Source: a virus
Virus record (IMG/VR): IMGVR_UViG_3300000352_000001
Location: 1 to 32,663 of that record
Length of the DNA stretch: 32,663 nt
Reading direction: 5' to 3' (one strand)
Shown one piece after another: positions 1,156 through 32,221 of the stretch. The notes under the pieces were generated by a model. The model was not told the DNA's origin, did no database searches, and saw only the letters and a list, made by a program, of their open reading frames with translations. Position 1 is the first letter of the stretch. Each line of letters opens with the position of its first letter. The translations under genes were made by a program, and so were the position numbers.

Positions 1156-1206
1156 CCCCACGCCCGGTGTGGCGGAAATGCTTTTTTTTGAAATGAGACC
1201 GGGGGG
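1156..1206. other. GC-rich island in an AT-rich intergenic gap; candidate cos/packaging site
   Basis: ccccacgcccggtgtggcgg (1156-1175, 17/20 G+C) and gaccgggggg (1197-1206) lie in the only sizeable non-coding gap between the HNH endonuclease and the terminase genes. Confidence 0.3.
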
Positions 1207-1212
1207 TATGCT

Positions 1213-1515
1213 TCATCTGTTTGGTTTCTTAATGAGATTGCCTCTCTCATCGAACATCAATTCATCTCTCAGCTGCACCTCGCGCGCACGTTTTGAGTTG
1301 TGACATCCCCTACATAAAAGTTGCAGGTTCTTTGGGTTGATACTGATGGTTGGATCTGACACATTGTCCGCTGATAATGGAATGATATGGTGTACTTCTG
1401 TACCCACTCCACCACAGTCTTCACATATTCCCATGCGTTCAGCTCTTATCATTCTTCTTACACGTTTCCATGCTTCTGATTGATAGAATTTTATAACATT
1501 TTCAGGTGTTTTCAC
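1213..1515 (-). CDS. HNH endonuclease, packaging-associated type
   Basis: CEDCGG...EVHHIIPL...LQLLCRGCHNSK gives a zinc-finger HNH signature in a 100-aa protein. It lies upstream of the terminase module together with a P27-type TerS. Confidence 0.85.
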   Translation of the reverse strand: MKTPENVIKFYQSEAWKRVRRMIRAERMGICEDCGGVGTEVHHIIPLSADNVSDPTISINPKNLQLLCRGCHNSKRAREVQLRDELMFDERGNLIKKPNR

Positions 1516-3781: not shown

Positions 3782-4251
3782 GACTCTTCCTCTATCTTTC
3801 TAGCAATCTCTATGATTCGCTTTCTTTCTTCTTGATTGATATTCGATACTGCATTCATAAATATTTCATATGCTTCCTTGTATAAATCATAGTGTCTTAT
3901 TTTGATGCATTGAGCTTTTGATTCGTGAAGTGCGTTTGCTATCTTATTAACTTTATCGATGGTTTCATTGAATGGTAGCTTTAGTATTTCTTCATGTCCT
4001 AGGAGTTCAAGTGCTTCATCGATGATGATTTCAAGTCCTTCCGTTACTTCAATTGCAATCGTATTGATGTCTTCAATGTAATATCTATGCATTCTAATTT
4101 GCTGTGTTTTATGAATTTGCACATCATAAAACTTACCTGGATCGAGTTTTGTTTCCGATATGACATAGTAGTTTTGATTGCCGTTTGTAAATAAATGGTT
4201 GTTTCCTTGTTCATTATAATCATCAGTTACTCTTACTAATTTTATGATCAT
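3778..4251 (-). CDS. Hypothetical protein
   Basis: 157-aa ORF, translationally coupled. Confidence 0.5.
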   Translation of the reverse strand: MIIKLVRVTDDYNEQGNNHLFTNGNQNYYVISETKLDPGKFYDVQIHKTQQIRMHRYYIEDINTIAIEVTEGLEIIIDEALELLGHEEILKLPFNETIDKVNKIANALHESKAQCIKIRHYDLYKEAYEIFMNAVSNINQEERKRIIEIARKIEEES

Positions 4252-5075
4252 GTCTTCACATCCTTTTTAAATCTTACATTTACAATGGCTTCTTTTTTAA
4301 TACGGCCATGGCATATGTCAAGTATCGTTTGATAACTTACGTATAGTGCTTTTGCTGCTGTCCTAGATGATCTGTACTCTTTTATGACGTTTCCTTTTTC
4401 GTCTAGTAGTTGGATTTCTTTGGATTGGCTTTTTTGATATCCTGTTAAGATTCCATGTTTTGATTTTTCTAGTAGTTCTAAATTATCAGCTCTACAGTTT
4501 TTGTAGTTACCATCTATGTGATGAATGTATAAATTGTCAGTTGATCTTATAAATGCTGTCGCAACTATTTTTGCGAGCTTGACATATTTCATTCCTTCAG
4601 TTCCATGCATTTTTACGAACAGGTGGTATCTATATTTTGTTTTGGACTTGTTCCATATCTTCTTCCTATATGGTCTAAGTACTAGTGCTACATCTTTTAA
4701 ATATTTTTTTAGGATGCCTTGGTTACTTATTTCGTAACCGGGATAACCTTCAACCGGAAGCCATTTGATTTGAGCTTGACCGTTTACTACCTTATCCCAC
4801 ATTTCGCTGTACCTTGGATGGTCTTCGTAGTGCTTTGTGAACCAGGATCTGATTGCAATTCTATCTTCCCTTGTTTTAGCATTCATCCATCTCTTAGCTG
4901 CTATTGATGTAGCTTGTTCAATTGTTCTAGCTTCATATCTTTTTCCCAGGATCTTTTTTATCTCTTCTTCTGGTATTCCTGATTTTATGAGTTTAAGTGT
5001 TTTTGGGTAGCTTACTTTATTCTTAATACACCATGAACGTGCTGATTCATTATTGATTTGATATTTTGTCATCAT
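4248..5075 (-). CDS. HNH homing endonuclease (NUMOD4-like, HNH, and a C-terminal DNA-binding module)
   Basis: WLPVEGYPGYEISNQGILK (NUMOD4-like), HHIDGNYKNCRADNLELL (HNH), and a C-terminal SSRTAAKALYVSYQTILDICHG that is HTH/NUMOD1-like. Confidence 0.75.
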   Translation of the reverse strand: MMTKYQINNESARSWCIKNKVSYPKTLKLIKSGIPEEEIKKILGKRYEARTIEQATSIAAKRWMNAKTREDRIAIRSWFTKHYEDHPRYSEMWDKVVNGQAQIKWLPVEGYPGYEISNQGILKKYLKDVALVLRPYRKKIWNKSKTKYRYHLFVKMHGTEGMKYVKLAKIVATAFIRSTDNLYIHHIDGNYKNCRADNLELLEKSKHGILTGYQKSQSKEIQLLDEKGNVIKEYRSSRTAAKALYVSYQTILDICHGRIKKEAIVNVRFKKDVKT

Positions 5076-5445
5076 CGTCTTTTTTGAACTTTCTTTGACA
5101 GTTTTCTTGATGTGTGACTATCTCTAGATTGCTTTGTTTGTTATTTCTTTTTTTACGATCGATATGGTCGATTGATAGTCCGTTATCTATCAACGAGTCT
5201 ATATGCGCAAGGTTGACTCCATTGATATCGCCAAAGAGTTCTACTACTTTGATGTGTGTGAAGTGCCACTTTGTTCCTATCTTAATTCTGTAGTACCCAC
5301 TGTTATTTTTAAATTGTTTGATGATTCTTTTATATGTCAGTGAGTAACATCTTCCATAGTTGCTTAGCATGTGTTTAGTTCCCAAGAACCTCCACACTTC
5401 ACCTTTTTTATTCTTTATGTTACTTGGTTTTTTCTCATTGCCCAT
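5050..5445 (-). CDS. HNH homing endonuclease (NUMOD4-like and HNH)
   Basis: GEVWRFLG...LSNYGRCYS, then SIDHIDRKKRNNKQSNLEIVTHQEN. Confidence 0.75.
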   Translation of the reverse strand: MGNEKKPSNIKNKKGEVWRFLGTKHMLSNYGRCYSLTYKRIIKQFKNNSGYYRIKIGTKWHFTHIKVVELFGDINGVNLAHIDSLIDNGLSIDHIDRKKRNNKQSNLEIVTHQENCQRKFKKDDDDKISNQ

Positions 5446-6004
5446 GGCTGCTACCTCCTATTTCATCACCGAATGCATCCCATCCGATTCTCTCTTTTCT
5501 TGCAAACACTTCATACTTTAATGTATCAGGGAACATTGATTCTATGAGTTCATATGCTGCTTTTGGTTTTTTACTGTGATCTGAGTTGGGTTCATGAATA
5601 ACTGATGCGTGATGTCCGGGATTGATTGGCATTTGAATGTGTCCGGGTTTATACCACCATTGCAGGTATTCGTGGGTCATTCTAACTGTGAATGCTGGGC
5701 ATGGTCCGTTTCCTTTTGACCATATAATATCTGTATGCTTTTTGTATCCTAGACTCTTCATTATTTTATCTAGTTCAATATAATACTTTTGGATGCACCA
5801 TACAAACAGGTTTGCTTCTGGCGATGCAGTTGTTATTTCTTGAATGTATTTTTTAATTTCATCCAATGACATCGTTTTATATGGAACAGGCATTCCTGAT
5901 GAATTTGGTTTCTTTTTCATTTTTCCGCCACGCATGAGCTGCCATGGTGGATCTAAAAGTATTATGCCGTAATTTCCTTTTCCTGCAGGTGTTTGATATA
6001 TCAT
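5435..6004 (-). CDS. MT-A70 family N6-adenine DNA methyltransferase
   Basis: GIILLDPPWQ (DPPW catalytic motif). The size and layout are typical of MT-A70 phage methylases. Confidence 0.8.
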   Translation of the reverse strand: MIYQTPAGKGNYGIILLDPPWQLMRGGKMKKKPNSSGMPVPYKTMSLDEIKKYIQEITTASPEANLFVWCIQKYYIELDKIMKSLGYKKHTDIIWSKGNGPCPAFTVRMTHEYLQWWYKPGHIQMPINPGHHASVIHEPNSDHSKKPKAAYELIESMFPDTLKYEVFARKERIGWDAFGDEIGGSSHGQ

Positions 6005-8840: not shown

Positions 8841-9494
8841 CTATTTTTTATGGACTCCGCCAATATAAACTTTTACTCTTTCTTTTTGTGCATCATTTAA
8901 ATCCCACATGACATAGAGCTGCGTTGTTATAATGTCATTGTGGTTGTACATTTTCGATAGTGTTTGCCAGGATCCACCACCTAAGATGTAATGGTATCCG
9001 AATGTTTTTCTTAGACTATGAAGACCGAACGTATATCCTATTCCGACTTCATCAGCTATATCCGAAACTATCTTATGTCCTTGTTGTCGAGTGATTGGCA
9101 AGTATATTTTCTTGCCTTGATGTATTTTTTTTTGACCCATGAACATGTAATCATATTCAGTCAAGTTGTTTCTTTGAATATATTCTAGGATGTCTTCATG
9201 CAGTTGCTTATTCATTTTGTAATTTTGCATTTTACCGGTTTTGTTTTCTTTGATTGATACATAACCCTTAATGACATCTTTAACTCTTATTTGAAGCAAA
9301 TCTTCTGCTCTAAGTGCTGTATTAAATCCTAGTACACACAGCATCCAGTTTCTATCAGCTTGCTCTTTTTTGACATCAGTTTTTGCTGATTCTCTTCTTT
9401 TTAATAATTGGAACATAAATCTTTCAAGTTCCCTTGGATCTTTAATTGGCCATGTTTGATGCTGCCCACCAAAGTATTTTACTCTTCTTGCCAT
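8841..9494 (-). CDS. Tyrosine recombinase; short, catalytic-domain-only form (217 aa)
   Basis: Catalytic residues can be read as NTALRAEDL (Arg), HSLRKTFG (His-x-x-Arg), NHND (His) and TQLYV (Tyr). Confidence 0.75.
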   Translation of the reverse strand: MARRVKYFGGQHQTWPIKDPRELERFMFQLLKRRESAKTDVKKEQADRNWMLCVLGFNTALRAEDLLQIRVKDVIKGYVSIKENKTGKMQNYKMNKQLHEDILEYIQRNNLTEYDYMFMGQKKIHQGKKIYLPITRQQGHKIVSDIADEVGIGYTFGLHSLRKTFGYHYILGGGSWQTLSKMYNHNDIITTQLYVMWDLNDAQKERVKVYIGGVHKK

Positions 9495-11113: not shown

Positions 11114-11515
11114 TTATACCTTCCTTTTTATCCAGTAATTCCGGATGTATTTGTTTCTGCAATCCCATATATCTATTAAAAATTTTCGATGATCTTTAGT
11201 TATTATGCAGGTTAGATGCTTATTGACACTTACTATTATGGTATCAGCTTCTACTACTTTTTCTATTTCATCAATGCGGTACTTCTTTTTATCCCATTTT
11301 TTAGGTTGAGCATATTTGATGTATCCTAGTTCACCAAGTACCTTCGTGTAGTTCTTTGGATCTGCAATATGATTTCCACTTTTTTTGTATTCTTCTATCA
11401 GCATGTCCAATACTTCAATGTACTTTTTTCCAGTAGCTGATGTAATTGCCCGGACAACACAATCAGTTGTTTTTTTATTTCTAAAGTTATTATTCGTTTG
11501 TTCATAGTAAATCAT
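11114..11515 (-). CDS. Hypothetical protein with a possible papain-like Cys/His arrangement; start revised
   Basis: TTDCVVRAITSATG (candidate Cys) ... VNKHLTCII (candidate His) ... DIWD. The ATG at 11515 is preceded by TGAGGTAGAAAAA. The fold assignment is a guess. Confidence 0.35.
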   Translation of the reverse strand: MIYYEQTNNNFRNKKTTDCVVRAITSATGKKYIEVLDMLIEEYKKSGNHIADPKNYTKVLGELGYIKYAQPKKWDKKKYRIDEIEKVVEADTIIVSVNKHLTCIITKDHRKFLIDIWDCRNKYIRNYWIKRKV

Positions 11516-11525
11516 TTTTTCTACC

Positions 11526-11840
11526 TCACAGTGTGATGATTGCTGCGTATCTGGCATAATCGTATCCTTCCGAATCAATCAGGATACCGTAATTATATCC
11601 ATCGCATGTCACTAATAAGCAGTGCCACATACCTTTATCATCTGTGTACATCGTTTCTTTATTTTCTATGATGAACTTTTTATCATCTAGTGGGTTGTTT
11701 ATTAAGTCTTCAAATTCTTCTTTTGTGACCTGGATTTGATATTCTATGATGTACTTTGTTTGTGGCAATAAGTCTTCTCTTTGTGGCTTTGTTTTAAATG
11801 TTGCATATCCATGTATGCTTTTTGGTATTGATTTATTCAT
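11526..11840 (-). CDS. Hypothetical protein
   Basis: 104-aa ORF ending ...WHCLLVTCDGYNYGILIDSEGYDYARYAA. No function known to me. Confidence 0.45.
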   Translation of the reverse strand: MNKSIPKSIHGYATFKTKPQREDLLPQTKYIIEYQIQVTKEEFEDLINNPLDDKKFIIENKETMYTDDKGMWHCLLVTCDGYNYGILIDSEGYDYARYAAIITL

Positions 11841-12279: not shown

Positions 12280-12412
12280 CCATGTATGCTCGAGGATGTT
12301 TTTTATTTTTATTTCTTTTTTCTACTAGTTTTTCAGCTTTGGTATAGCTTCTTGTTTTTAGTATTTTTGCTCCTGCATCAATCACAACGTACTTCTTTGT
12401 TTTGCTCATCAT
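12260..12412 (-). CDS. Hypothetical 50-aa basic protein; below the ORF-track size cut-off
   Basis: Hand translation gives MMSKTKKYVVIDAGAKILKTRSYTKAEKLVEKRNKNKKHPRAYMDEERED. Its start overlaps the upstream stop (ATGA), and it fills an otherwise empty 129-bp gap. Confidence 0.4.
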   Translation of the reverse strand: MMSKTKKYVVIDAGAKILKTRSYTKAEKLVEKRNKNKKHPRAYMDEERED

Positions 12413-12732
12413 TTCACTCTTTCTATTAGTATAATAAGATTTTTTCCTGTGATTAATTCGTAGTTTATCTTATCTACAATTTTTTCTACAATTTTTAATC
12501 CTTTTTTATACTTGATTACATCATCTTTTGTAGATGTGAATTCGATGACTATTGGGTTTGATCCTATCTTTGAAAAATCAGTATCTTCCCAATTCCATTC
12601 CAGTGTTATGCCTTTTTTTTCTTCAATGACATCGATTGCACGCCATCTAGGATCAGAGTCTATTTTTGTTAGATAATCTGGCTTCCACACATTCTTATTA
12701 AACACATTTTGAAGTTGTTCTATGATTCTCAT
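12409..12732 (-). CDS. Hypothetical protein immediately downstream of hammerhead copy 1
   Basis: The ATG lies 6 nt after the GGAGG that directly follows the repeat's 3' tail. Confidence 0.5.
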   Translation of the reverse strand: MRIIEQLQNVFNKNVWKPDYLTKIDSDPRWRAIDVIEEKKGITLEWNWEDTDFSKIGSNPIVIEFTSTKDDVIKYKKGLKIVEKIVDKINYELITGKNLIILIERVK

Positions 12733-12742
12733 TAATTACCTC

Positions 12743-12814
12743 CTAGCCTATCTCATCAGCACTGGGTGGCTGCTCCAGTGGACTAGAGCCTGTGGGTTTG
12801 CTCTAGTTTCGATT
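12743..12814 (-). ncRNA. Type II hammerhead self-cleaving ribozyme motif, copy 1; predicted cleavage between 12781 and 12780
   Basis: Minus-strand RNA: AAUC-GAA-[ACUAGAGC-AAACCCACAG-GCUCUAGU]-C^-[CACUGG-AGCAGCCAC-CCAGUG]-CUGAUGA-GAUAGGCUAG. All 11 core positions and the A15.1-U16.1 pair are present. Confidence 0.75.
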
Positions 12815-12815
12815 T

Positions 12816-13079
12816 TTAAATTTTGATTATTTCTAATTTGATTAATTTTTTAACTACCACTGTACCTTGGATTGCATCGCTTTTTTCTACCATGTGCTTT
12901 TCTACTTTTTTGATTAGCTCATCAGCTTTGGTTCCATCAGCAACTTCGACTGTGAAGTTTGATTTCCATGTTTCATTTGGACTTTTGATTTGGTGTGATT
13001 CACCTGTACCTATGTTTTTCATTGTGACATATTCATTCTTTGGTTTTTTTTGATATTCGCATCTAACTTCTACTACCAT
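12816..13079 (-). CDS. Hypothetical 87-aa protein between hammerhead copies 2 and 1
   Basis: GGAGG-N8-AUG. The stop UAA lies 2 nt before the next repeat. Confidence 0.5.
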   Translation of the reverse strand: MVVEVRCEYQKKPKNEYVTMKNIGTGESHQIKSPNETWKSNFTVEVADGTKADELIKKVEKHMVEKSDAIQGTVVVKKLIKLEIIKI

Positions 13080-13091
13080 TTTAATTTCCTC

Positions 13092-13163
13092 CTAGCCTAT
13101 CTCATCAGCACTGGGTGGCTGCTCCAGTGGACTAGAGCCTGTGGGTTTGCTCTAGTTTCGATT
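13092..13163 (-). ncRNA. Type II hammerhead ribozyme motif, copy 2; predicted cleavage between 13130 and 13129
   Basis: Identical in sequence to copy 1 over the whole motif. The upstream ORF's stop codon (13162-13164) overlaps the 5' edge of the motif. Confidence 0.75.
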
Positions 13164-13425
13164 ATTCGTATGATTCTAGTATTTCTTGGTATTTATCATA
13201 AGCTTCTTGTAGTGCATCTTTGACTTCTTCTAGTCCTTCAATTTGTGATTCTATTTTTTCTATTTTTTCTTGCTCTTTCTCAGTGTTTTCGCCTGATTCT
13301 CTTTCATATGCTTTTTCTTCTATTTTCTCTTTTTTCTCTTCTAGGTTTGGGATGTATTCTTCTTCTATCTTGTTTATTTCATCCTGTAGTGTTTCCATTT
13401 TTGCTTCTATTTGCTTTTTTGTCAT
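13162..13425 (-). CDS. Highly acidic 87-aa predicted coiled-coil protein
   Basis: Hand count gives about 29 Asp+Glu against about 14 Lys+Arg. Heptad-like EEKKEKIEEK... repeats. Flanked by hammerhead copies 3 and 2. Confidence 0.5.
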   Translation of the reverse strand: MTKKQIEAKMETLQDEINKIEEEYIPNLEEKKEKIEEKAYERESGENTEKEQEKIEKIESQIEGLEEVKDALQEAYDKYQEILESYE

Positions 13426-13437
13426 TGTTTTCTCTTT

Positions 13438-13509
13438 CTAGCCTATCTCATCAGCACTGGGTGGCTACTCCAGTGGACTAGAGCCTGTGGGTTTGCTCTA
13501 GTTTCGATT
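13438..13509 (-). ncRNA. Type II hammerhead ribozyme motif, copy 3; predicted cleavage between 13476 and 13475
   Basis: Same as copies 1 and 2 apart from one substitution (plus-strand a at 13467, so loop I reads AGUAGCCAC). Confidence 0.75.
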
Positions 13510-13510
13510 T

Positions 13511-13687
13511 TTATTGTTCTTCGGTTATTTCATCTAGGCTGTATGTTTCGATTTCTTCTTCGGTTAATTTTCTATCGTATTCTATGATGTCGTAGTATGT
13601 ATTGGTTGGATCATCATGTCTTCTTATAAATCCGTTCATTGGTTGGCATCCTATGCTGAACCCTCTTAGTCGCATTCCGTATTTCAT
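13511..13687 (-). CDS. Hypothetical 58-aa protein, first gene of the early operon; start revised
   Basis: The track start at 13726 lies inside the -10 box. The ATG at 13687 follows GGAGGAATAAA. The product begins MKYGMRLRGFSIGCQPMNGF... Confidence 0.55.
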   Translation of the reverse strand: MKYGMRLRGFSIGCQPMNGFIRRHDDPTNTYYDIIEYDRKLTEEEIETYSLDEITEEQ

Positions 13688-13724: not shown

Positions 13725-13757
13725 ATTATATCAAATAGCGTTTACTTAGTCAACGCT
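13725..13757 (-). promoter_or_regulatory. Near-consensus promoter TTGACT-N17-TGaTATAAT (extended -10) with an overlapping inverted repeat AGCGTT-N9-AACGCT as candidate operator
   Basis: -35 at 13753-13748 and -10 at 13730-13725. The inverted-repeat arms are 13737-13742 and 13752-13757. The site is immediately downstream of a terminator. Confidence 0.8.
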
Positions 13758-13775
13758 TATGTTATATTGAAGTGC

Positions 13776-13819
13776 AATAAAAAAAGCCCTTATAGATTGG
13801 TGTCTATACAAGGGCTTTA
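13776..13819 (-). terminator. Rho-independent terminator ending the late (structural) transcription unit
   Basis: Minus strand AAAGCCCTTGTATAG-ACACCAAT-CTATAAGGGCTTT followed by TTTTTTT. It starts 3 nt after the stop of 13822..14409. Confidence 0.8.
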
Positions 13820-30677: not shown

Positions 30678-31161
30678 TCATGAGATCAAGCACATCACTT
30701 TTTGGCTTGTTCTTACTGTGAGCATTTCCTATTCTTGCTCTTCCTACAGGAGTTAGGCATAACTGCTCCGCTAATTTAGATATAATTTTGGATTGCTTTT
30801 CCATGGTTGCAAATGTTTTGTCTAGCATCTTTTGTCCAGCATCATTCCCGGACACTACTTGATTTACTTTTGCCCATGTTTCTTGCGCCTTTTTATATAT
30901 CGCTGTAGCTTCGCAGTACATGACTAATGCAGTGATATCGAGATCGTTAAGGATTTTAATTTCCATTTGTGCATATAATCTCATGATTCTTCGCCATTCT
31001 TTTTTGGCTTCATCTGTTAGATACTTTGGAACTGTTAGCTTTGCTTTTGTTTTGAGCTTTGCTTCAATCTCTTTTCGCATCTCGATTTCTTCACTGTTTT
31101 TTTTATGACTTTGGTTGTCAATGGCAGCTGCAGGAATAGGTTTTCTACCAGTGTTTCCCAT
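30664..31161 (-). CDS. Terminase small subunit, P27 family
   Basis: The pattern PKYLTDEAKKEWRRI...LDITALVMYCEA...LSKLAEQLCLTPVGRARIG is typical of P27-type TerS. Confidence 0.8.
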   Translation of the reverse strand: MGNTGRKPIPAAAIDNQSHKKNSEEIEMRKEIEAKLKTKAKLTVPKYLTDEAKKEWRRIMRLYAQMEIKILNDLDITALVMYCEATAIYKKAQETWAKVNQVVSGNDAGQKMLDKTFATMEKQSKIISKLAEQLCLTPVGRARIGNAHSKNKPKSDVLDLMNEED

Positions 31162-32221
31162 AGTAGTGGCATCCGCCAGCTATTTCACTGTATTTGATAT
31201 CTCTTAGTCCTAGACGTTTAATAATGGATCCTGGTGTGAGCTCAATGCGTTTGATGTAGTCAATAATTTCTTTTCTATCATCAGCATCTATGCTTCCATT
31301 AAGTATGATGTTTACGCTTAATGGTTCTTTGATTCCAATTCCGTATGCAACTTGAATTTGCACATCTGTTAGTCCATGGCTTTTAAATTTATCAATTGTT
31401 CTTACTGCAATTTCTCTAGCTGCGTAGGATCCGCTTCTATCTACCTTGCTTGGATCCTTACCTGAGAATGCTCCGCCACCTACCTGGATATATCCGCCAT
31501 ATTGGTCGCATACGATTTTTCTTCCTGTGAGTCCTGAATCAGCTTCTGGTCCACCCAGTGTCCATCGTCCGGATGGATTTGCAATGATTTTAACTTGCTC
31601 AATATTTTTTACTTCATTCAATCTAAGTGATTGGTGAATGATTTGGTGGATTGTTTCTTTTACTGTTTTTTCATCAATGTTTTCATAGTGACATGCGCTC
31701 ACTAGGATTGTATGCACTGACTCTTTTGGGTACTTATCCAAGTCGACTGTAACTTGAACTTTTGCATCGCCTTTGAAAATTCTTCCTTCATCAGCATAAT
31801 GTTCGATGTGTTTAATAATATGATTTGCTATGTGGAATCCGAATGGTAGGTAACTTGATGTTTCACTTGTTGCGTATCCAAACATAATTCCTTGATCCCC
31901 TGCTGCAGGATCATCCGCATTGGTTCCATCAACCGCATGATTGATTTCTTGTGATTGTTTGCCTAATAGATTAATGACTTCATCTACTTGGTATTTCAGT
32001 TTGAATGCGATGTTTTTGACTACAGCTTCGATTTCTTCTTTTGTGAATGATTCGCTTGTTTCACCAGCTACAATGACAACTCTATCTTTGACTAAAGTTT
32101 CAGCTGCAACTCTGGCGTTTTTATTTTTCTTAAGTGCTGCATCCAATATGGCATCGCTTATTTGATCGGCATATTTGTCAGGATGATATTTTGATACTTG
32201 TTCTGTGCTAAATAGTTTCAT
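31145..32221 (-). CDS. metK: S-adenosylmethionine synthetase (methionine adenosyltransferase)
   Basis: HPDKYADQISDAILDA, GDQGIMFGYA, KGDAKVQVT, GGPEADSGLTGRKIV and GGGAFSGKDPSKVDRSGSYAAR all align to canonical MetK motifs. Confidence 0.9.
   Translation of the reverse strand: MKLFSTEQVSKYHPDKYADQISDAILDAALKKNKNARVAAETLVKDRVVIVAGETSESFTKEEIEAVVKNIAFKLKYQVDEVINLLGKQSQEINHAVDGTNADDPAAGDQGIMFGYATSETSSYLPFGFHIANHIIKHIEHYADEGRIFKGDAKVQVTVDLDKYPKESVHTILVSACHYENIDEKTVKETIHQIIHQSLRLNEVKNIEQVKIIANPSGRWTLGGPEADSGLTGRKIVCDQYGGYIQVGGGAFSGKDPSKVDRSGSYAAREIAVRTIDKFKSHGLTDVQIQVAYGIGIKEPLSVNIILNGSIDADDRKEIIDYIKRIELTPGSIIKRLGLRDIKYSEIAGGCHYYGKHW

Follow-up and report, generated by a model that had tools for sequence, protein, structure and literature searches.

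Clusters of hammerhead ribozymes in phage DNA were described by Perreault et al. in 2011 (PLoS Comput Biol, PMC3088659), who found elements of type II, with a short stem II and a pseudoknot between loop I and the 3' tail, flanking individual prophage genes. Triple arrays occur in Clostridium scindens, Azorhizobium caulinodans and Agrobacterium tumefaciens (PMC3088659). In tests of three tandem arrays, among which a triple one surrounds the anti-restriction gene ardA, cleavage took place in vitro; one array cloned in Escherichia coli also cleaved in vivo (PMC3088659). The authors put forward the release of single-gene messenger RNAs (mRNAs) and raised the possibility of circular or spliced products, the latter not being detected (PMC3088659). 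A review from 2019 considered the biological role of bacterial and phage hammerheads still unknown (PMC6765202), and our literature search found no paper on phage hammerhead function newer than that year. Here we analyse IMG/VR virus record IMGVR_UViG_3300000352_000001 over its 32,663 nucleotides (nt), hereafter the window, whose minus strand carries three hammerhead ribozymes in tandem among small genes of a predicted early operon. Our results suggest that these ribozymes probably process an early polycistronic transcript, constitutively, into hairpin-capped monocistronic mRNAs, and thereby insulate small-gene cassettes that can be exchanged between related phages.

The Rfam family RF02276 (Hammerhead_II) matches the minus strand of the window three times, at 13509-13437 (copy 3), 13163-13091 (copy 2) and 12814-12742 (copy 1). 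Copy 3 scores 38.6 bits, the gathering score being 37, and copies 2 and 1 score 35.7 bits each, with an E-value of 8e-4 for the whole window. Apart from these matches, an Rfam scan of the 32.7-kilobase (kb) window at E-values up to 5 returned no family, and a custom covariance model found no further copies in it. A repeat finder also recovered all three, spaced 349 and 346 nt apart. The elements are as follows.

12739 to 12814, minus strand: Hammerhead 1 (type II), predicted cleavage at 12781/12780.
13088 to 13163, minus strand: Hammerhead 2 (type II), predicted cleavage at 13130/13129.
13434 to 13509, minus strand: Hammerhead 3 (type II), predicted cleavage at 13476/13475, with a pseudoknot UAGCC:GGCUA of 5 base pairs (bp).

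Each copy starts at its 5' end with AAUC, in which AUC is the 5' strand of stem II, followed by GAA. In all three, stem III is formed by ACUAGAGC, a 10-nt loop and GCUCUAGU, after which come C17 and the cleavage site, and stem I by CACUGG, a 9-nt loop and CCAGUG, followed by CUGAUGA. The 3' strand of stem II (GAU), a helix of only 3 bp (AUC/GAU), and the tail A-GGCUA-G complete the element. The core was judged by C3 U4 G5 A6 N7 G8 A9, G12 A13 A14, A15.1-U16.1 and an H17 at the cleavage site, and is complete in three of three copies (CUGAUGA, GAA, the closing A-U pair and GUC), with no mispair adjoining it. Loops close off stems I and III and stem II is open in the Rfam alignment, which is the type II topology, and the minimum-free-energy (MFE) folds of the window copies form stems III and I. 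A pseudoknot of at least 4 bp between loop I and the 3' tail is a feature of the majority of type II hammerheads (Perreault 2011, PMC3088659); here it has 4 bp (AGCC:GGCU) in copies 1 and 2. In copy 3, which within the motif differs from the other two by a single loop I base (U for C) and diverges past GGCUAG, that change extends the pairing to the 5 bp listed above. An earlier, sequence-only reading of this DNA had proposed three hammerheads with scissile sites 346 and 349 nt apart, and both the Rfam matches and the positions of C17 of the GUC (13476, 13130 and 12781), after which cleavage is predicted, bear this out. It had also described identical direct repeats of 72 nt. The identity stands, but the length is 76 nt in copies 1 and 2, and copy 3 departs from them by its one loop I base.

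Relatives of the locus were recovered by protein and pattern searches; all of them are metagenomic, and the lineage is rare. A blastn search with the region and with one ribozyme gave no match in 50,697 phage records. When viral contigs were scanned with the 198-amino-acid (aa) upstream protein nothing was returned, and a scan with the 148-aa protein returned only the L001 contig. The relatives that carry ribozymes are listed below.

L001/L005 (IMG/VR, 36 kb): two ribozymes.
L010 (Logan): one ribozyme, and a truncated one at the contig start.
L011 (JGI, 1.7 kb): three ribozymes; L012 to L014 are fragments of L011.
L015 (Logan): a truncated ribozyme at the contig start.
L016 (Logan, 42 kb): one ribozyme.
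L017 (ENA, 24.7 kb): five ribozymes.
L018 (Logan): one ribozyme.

The hammerheads of these relatives lie at the same kind of junction and are built from different helices. Stem III occurs as ACUAGAGC, ACUGGAGUC, ACACUAG, ACCUGC, ACCAGG and ACUAGG, stem I as CACUGG, CACCGG, UGCAGG and UAGCAC, and the pseudoknot as AGCC:GGCU, AGGC:GCCU and CCCCAU:AUGGGG. The pseudoknot itself covaries, with a compensatory change from C-G to G-C in 4 of 13 relatives and a different 6-bp pairing in L018. Two alignments were built with the structure in mind, one registered and N-padded by hand (A3) and one fitted to a model (A5), since MAFFT misaligned ribozymes of unequal stem length. In A3 (8 distinct copies) 97% of the cells are paired, against at most 35% in slid controls, and in A5 (15 distinct copies from seven related loci) 93.5%, against at most 36%, percentages that are biased towards the structure by the way in which the alignments were made. 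The compensatory pairs, 9 in A3 and 12 in A5 with the pseudoknot included, are independent of that bias. Covariation is found in stems I and III, stem II shows a one-sided change from A-U to G-U, and the core varies across the relatives only at N7 (U or C) and H17 (C or A). Both are free positions in hammerheads. Taken together, the E-values, the covariation and the conservation in relatives go beyond chance, and the three elements are almost certainly genuine hammerheads.

The ribozymes stand in a row of short genes with the order terminator, promoter, DarA_C gene, Hammerhead 3, ORF-A, Hammerhead 2, ORF-B, Hammerhead 1, ORF-C, where ORF stands for open reading frame. Apart from the ribozymes, the features are these.

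13775 to 13818, minus strand: terminator-like hairpin with a U7 run (-16.1 kcal/mol, z -4.7), closing the preceding (late/lysis) transcription unit.
13725 to 13753, minus strand: strong, near-consensus promoter of the sigma-70 type, TTGACT-17-TATAAT with a TG extension (11 of 12 matches), conserved in L011.
13511 to 13687, minus strand: first cistron, a 58-aa protein with a DarA_C domain (PF18789, E-value 1.9e-12), conserved in L001, L011 and L017.
13162 to 13425, minus strand: ORF-A, a charged, coiled-coil-like protein of 87 aa under purifying selection (ratio of non-synonymous to synonymous substitution rates, dN/dS, 0.13-0.21).
13130 to 13475, minus strand: predicted excised RNA of 346 nt, from the cleavage geometry (ORF-A mRNA).
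12816 to 13079, minus strand: ORF-B, a protein of 87 aa (dN/dS about 0.19-0.20); the cassette is absent from L001.
12781 to 13129, minus strand: predicted excised RNA of 349 nt, from the cleavage geometry (ORF-B mRNA), equal to the unit missing from L001.
12409 to 12732, minus strand: ORF-C (107 aa), leading cistron of the long RNA predicted 3' of the last cleavage, with further small ORFs beyond.

The ribozyme-containing early operon is predicted to start at the promoter at 13753-13725. Of the copies compared, 15 of 16 have an upstream stop codon that ends between -2 and +2 nt from the ribozyme's first base, and in 13 of 15 the start codon lies 19-22 nt past A9, with UAGGAGG directly after the pseudoknot tail; in the L017 copy at 4225-4290 the start codon lies 35 nt past A9. 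With such tight spacing of stop codon, ribozyme, Shine-Dalgarno sequence (SD) and start codon, the ribozyme fills the whole intergenic spacer. Each predicted unit begins with the stem I hairpin (CACUGG/CCAGUG), continues with CUGAUGA and GAUAGGCUAG, has its SD directly after the tail (GGAGG in copies 1 and 2, AGAAAGAG in copy 3), contains one 87-aa ORF and ends in AAUC-GAA-stem III-GUC. This composition, already set out in the sequence-only reading, is confirmed on the minus strand, and the description of each excised unit as a permuted hammerhead whose stem II is closed by the ORF is formally right as geometry.

The locus thus resembles the clusters of Perreault et al. in having three hammerheads a few hundred nt apart on the coding strand of phage DNA, each followed by one small ORF, and in their type II fold with a short stem II and a pseudoknot between loop I and the 3' tail. 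An anti-restriction-type gene is associated with both, ardA in the 2011 arrays and the DarA_C-domain gene here, and the proposed outcome is the same, namely single-gene mRNAs and possibly circles. Unlike the published examples, the window belongs to a different, uncultured phage lineage, its large terminase (TerL) being less than 40% identical to those of known Bacillus and Clostridium siphophages. The arrangement has been known from prophages since 2011, and the window adds a clean further case of it without representing a novel type of system. What is added here are arrays of one to five ribozymes, an exact indel of one unit, homogenisation of the copies within genomes, the fixed spacing of stop codon, ribozyme and SD, and an early operon led by a DarA_C gene.

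According to the explanation that we favour, each ribozyme would cleave after its GUC during transcription, and the polycistronic RNA would be divided in four, with a leader mRNA of about 243 nt first, then the mRNAs of 346 and 349 nt and finally a long downstream RNA. Each 3' product would start with a fully paired stem I hairpin with a 5'-hydroxyl (5'-OH) and have its own SD about 10 nt past the ribozyme tail. Each 5' product would terminate in the stem III hairpin, 30-35 nt beyond its stop codon, and bear a 2',3'-cyclic phosphate. The benefit might be that every small early gene obtains a defined 5' untranslated region and defined ends independently of its neighbours, much as synthetic ribozyme insulators provide, but by natural means. 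In the DNA, the conserved linker of stop codon, ribozyme and SD is the site where cassettes made of SD, ORF and stop codon are gained, lost and shuffled between related phages.

RiboJ is an insulator derived from a hammerhead and placed between promoter and ribosome-binding site (RBS); with it, expression in E. coli rises 2-10 fold (PMC6206723). As in RiboJ, the hammerheads of the window lie directly upstream of an RBS and are predicted to remove the upstream RNA context and to leave an mRNA capped by a hairpin with a 5'-OH. They differ from it in being natural, in lying between cistrons and not after a promoter, and in being of type II with a pseudoknot and without an added hairpin that exposes the RBS. 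With the glmS ribozyme they would share self-cleavage within an mRNA leader and a downstream product, bearing a 5'-OH, on whose fate the RNases of the host decide (PMC6765202). Nevertheless, glmS is an unrelated, metabolite-dependent ribozyme class present as a single copy, whereas stem I of the window copies would pair the new 5' end completely.

The stem I hairpin stands at the very start of the predicted 3' product, whose 5' end is fully paired in it (-7 to -8 kcal/mol), and the predicted 5' product ends one nt past the stem III hairpin (-10 kcal/mol). Hairpin ends are expected to hinder exonucleases. On these modelled ends, it is plausible that the terminal hairpins and end groups affect mRNA stability, as the sequence-only reading had suggested. 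In Firmicutes the 5'-OH product of glmS is degraded after cleavage (PMC6765202), and any effect of cleavage may go either way, towards a gain of the RiboJ type or towards decay of the glmS type.

Comparison with the relatives shows that the genes between the ribozymes vary. With H for a hammerhead and Dar for the DarA_C gene, the gene orders are as follows.

Window: Dar, H, A, H, B, H, C.
L001: Dar, H, A, H, C.
L011: Dar, H, A, H, B, H, D (67 aa), C.
L017: Dar, H, 79 aa, H, 83 aa, H, 177 aa, H, A, H, C.
L016: 66 aa, A, H, 79 aa.

Relative to L001 the window has exactly 349 nt extra, that is, one unit of ribozyme plus ORF, and both flanks align into a ribozyme. ORF-C, at 93-96% aa identity in L010, L011 and L017, is preceded there by stretches unrelated to one another (a ribozyme of b type, the end of ORF-D or a ribozyme of a'' type), and its homology in these three starts at UAGGAGG, which places the breakpoints at the SD that follows the ribozyme directly on its 3' side. 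The proposal that the repeats serve as boundaries for the gain and loss of cassettes is supported by these related genomes, given that L001 lacks one exact unit and that other ORFs occupy arrays of one to five ribozymes. The sequences support an exchange unit that runs from SD through ORF to stop codon, with or without its ribozyme, the SD itself being one junction. A protein of family phrog_3754 is encoded outside the array in the window (11114-11578, minus strand), inside it and flanked by hammerheads in L017 (4312-4845), and just downstream of a hammerhead in L016 (5577-5978); these placements show that genes pass into and out of the stretch punctuated by ribozymes. In L017, at 5001-5265, the ORF-A homologue is split into ORFs of 55 and 43 aa and its neighbours look truncated, which may be an error of the long-read assembly or real decay.

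Such variation raises the question of whether the elements of about 70 nt act mainly on DNA, as homologous landing pads for the gain, loss and shuffling of cassettes, with RNA cleavage being secondary or dispensable. The L001 indel of exactly one unit, the different ORFs held in the arrays and the breakpoints at the ribozyme edge all fit this, as does the pattern of identity, since ribozymes are 96-100% identical within the window and 91-100% within L017 and far less alike (64-69%) between these two genomes. It is nonetheless an unlikely account, because compensatory changes keep all helices and the pseudoknot while the core is invariant, which indicates selection on the RNA fold and not on DNA homology only. 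Moreover, L011 and L005 retain heterogeneous copies (52-70% identity) at the same positions, and some breakpoints lie at the SD itself, where no ribozyme is needed (L011 ORF-D has none downstream). A further reading is a combination, in which the ribozyme linker is the organising element of a cassette system in phage early operons. An element of about 70 nt might then do two jobs, giving each small gene autonomy of expression through cleavage, capped ends and its own SD, and, by staying homogenised in each genome, providing the homology by which units of ribozyme plus ORF are captured, duplicated and lost; this we hold to be possible rather than probable. If true, accessory genes, and perhaps genes for counter-defence, would be housed in a counterpart of an integron array whose units are defined by RNA.

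Other accounts concern the RNA itself. Cleavage could be conditional, with ribosomes at the upstream stop codon or the SD competing with ribozyme folding, so that it reports translation and tunes the output or timing of early genes, possibly through destabilisation of the 5'-OH product. The stop codon does abut or overlap the 5' strand of stem II, the SD starts directly past the pseudoknot tail, ribosome footprints would overlap the ribozyme elements, and glmS offers a precedent for decay triggered by cleavage (PMC6765202). However, in nested-structure partition functions of pseudoknot-free models, the SD and AUG are equally accessible in cleaved and uncleaved RNAs. The coupling of ribozyme folding to the SD that the sequence-only reading had proposed thus finds no support in these models, and a switch that sequesters the SD was rejected on the same predicted accessibility. 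We saw no other conserved pairing by which the SD or the core would be sequestered, genome compaction would equally lead to tight packing, and the 35-nt spacing in L017 shows that the close arrangement is not obligatory; we therefore find conditional regulation quite unlikely. Circular RNAs, formed from the 346- and 349-nt units by hammerhead self-ligation or by a host ligase of the RtcB type, would be exonuclease-resistant mRNAs or viroid-like RNAs. Like the RNAs of Avsunviroidae, satellite RNAs and retrozymes, units bounded by hammerheads about 350 nt apart would be released at unit length with 5'-OH and 2',3'-cyclic phosphate ends; the end chemistry is right, joining would rebuild a complete hammerhead, a perfect one given the identical copies, and the possibility was raised by Perreault et al. 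(PMC3088659). In those systems, however, one unit is repeated in tandem and a compact rod-like or branched fold juxtaposes the ends, whereas the units here lie in DNA in the operon of a double-stranded DNA phage, and neither a circularisation signal nor a ligase was found, no RtcB or RNA ligase Pfam domain being present in the 40 window ORFs scanned. ORF-A and ORF-B are unrelated protein-coding genes under purifying selection and only the ribozyme of about 76 nt is repeated, so the units are not a multimer. The halves would be held by the 3-bp stem II alone (duplex energy +1.1 kcal/mol). A makes up 45-52% of the units, in which only the terminal hairpins are stable. The MFEs, -38.9 kcal/mol (z -2.0) for 346 nt and -53.9 kcal/mol (z 0.0) for 349 nt, are near those of shuffled sequence, hence no rod or branched fold brings the ends together. 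With no circular or spliced products found in comparable arrays (PMC3088659), the viroid analogy and the circles drawn from it are disfavoured and appear very improbable. An endless rolling-circle ORF was likewise considered and rejected, as three laps contain 24 and 27 stops and no frame around the circle is free of stops. Finally, the elements could be decayed relics devoid of ribozyme activity, which the scores of copies 1 and 2 just under the Rfam gathering score might suggest; with all core positions intact and no mispair next to the core, strong covariation across genomes and conserved position and spacing, the chance of this seems negligible.

Constitutive processing into insulated, hairpin-capped mRNAs thus remains our preferred explanation, and we consider it probable. 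It builds on motif identity, covariation, architecture and cassette variation, each of which is observed in these genomes, while we infer cleavage in vivo, the effects on stability or translation and any selective reason. Several points weigh against it. Copies 1 and 2 score 1.3 bits below the gathering score of RF02276, no host or prophage was found, two scans of genome contigs with ribozyme patterns giving no match, and by analogy with glmS cleavage could destabilise the products rather than stabilise them. Mosaic junctions at phage gene boundaries are also common without ribozymes, and the ribozyme may be a passenger at such junctions rather than a promoter of exchange.

The nature of the cassette genes can be described in part. 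ORF-A and ORF-B have exactly 87 codons in all relatives and dN/dS values of 0.13-0.21 at dS of 0.5-1.4; judged by this sequence evolution, they are real genes. No similarity between them is detectable. The near-equal unit lengths (346 and 349 nt, and 338-341 nt in relatives) come about because two unrelated ORFs happen to match in length, and not by multimerisation. Pfam and PHROGs gave nothing informative for ORF-A, ORF-B, ORF-C or the cassettes of relatives, phrog_3754 (function unknown) being the sole family match. AlphaFold2 models of ORF-B from three sequences reached a pLDDT (predicted local distance difference test) of 64, below use for a fold search. A distant ORF-A-like gene of 86 aa lies beside a TnpB-like (Cas12f1-like_TNB) gene in L019 (139-690, minus strand, and 1190-1450, plus strand), a contig of 1.5 kb in which a hammerhead was looked for and none was detected.

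The minus strand carries every gene of the window, among them those of a tailed phage: the small terminase (TerS), TerL, a portal, an S78 protease and an HK97-type capsid protein. Other genes encode an S-adenosylmethionine (SAM) synthetase, two DNA methyltransferases, HNH nucleases, a short tyrosine recombinase and helix-turn-helix regulators. The SAM synthetase is full-length, with all three MetK domains, and lies directly upstream of the small terminase gene (31145-32221, minus strand). The early region (minus strand, 5435-6004, 1764-2279, 1213-1515, 4248-5075, 5050-5445 and 8841-9494) holds an MT-A70 methyltransferase, an N6_N4 methylase fragment, three HNH-type ORFs (one of them with NUMOD4) and a tyrosine recombinase of 217 aa.

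Several observations concern the detection of such arrays. Even at E-values up to 1, RF02276 is silent on the copies at 5457-5527 in L005, 603-669 and 940-1010 in L011 and 297-367 in L010, whose cores and helices are complete; scans based on the family thus miss intact copies and under-count arrays of this kind. The short-read (Logan) contigs L010 (1-26) and L015 (1-28) start inside a hammerhead, 26-28 nt before its end, as expected if the repeat breaks de Bruijn graphs, which suggests that those genomes also carry several identical copies. A scan of metagenomes with the stem I pattern found three short contigs (L006, L007 and L009) of an unrelated type II subfamily, and a fourth match, L008, reached only 15.9 bits with model R1. 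Three type II hammerhead-like elements are also present in an unrelated phage contig, L003 (IMGVR_UViG_3300032038_000945), on the minus strand at 8322-8249, 7908-7835 and 6932-6863. Their core is CCGAUGA or CCGACGA and not CUGAUGA, an apparent change of U4 to C, and their stem III covaries between copies. The layout is the same, with promoter, small ORF, element and small ORF. Rfam missed these elements, and the custom model detects two of them, at 24-25 bits only.

Given that short-read assemblies break in the repeats and that the Rfam type II model misses intact copies, arrays of this type are probably under-counted in phages. The phages related to the window form a compact natural test set, in which between one and five ribozymes are found at a shared place in the operon, the cassettes are interchangeable and the copies are homogenised or divergent depending on the genome.

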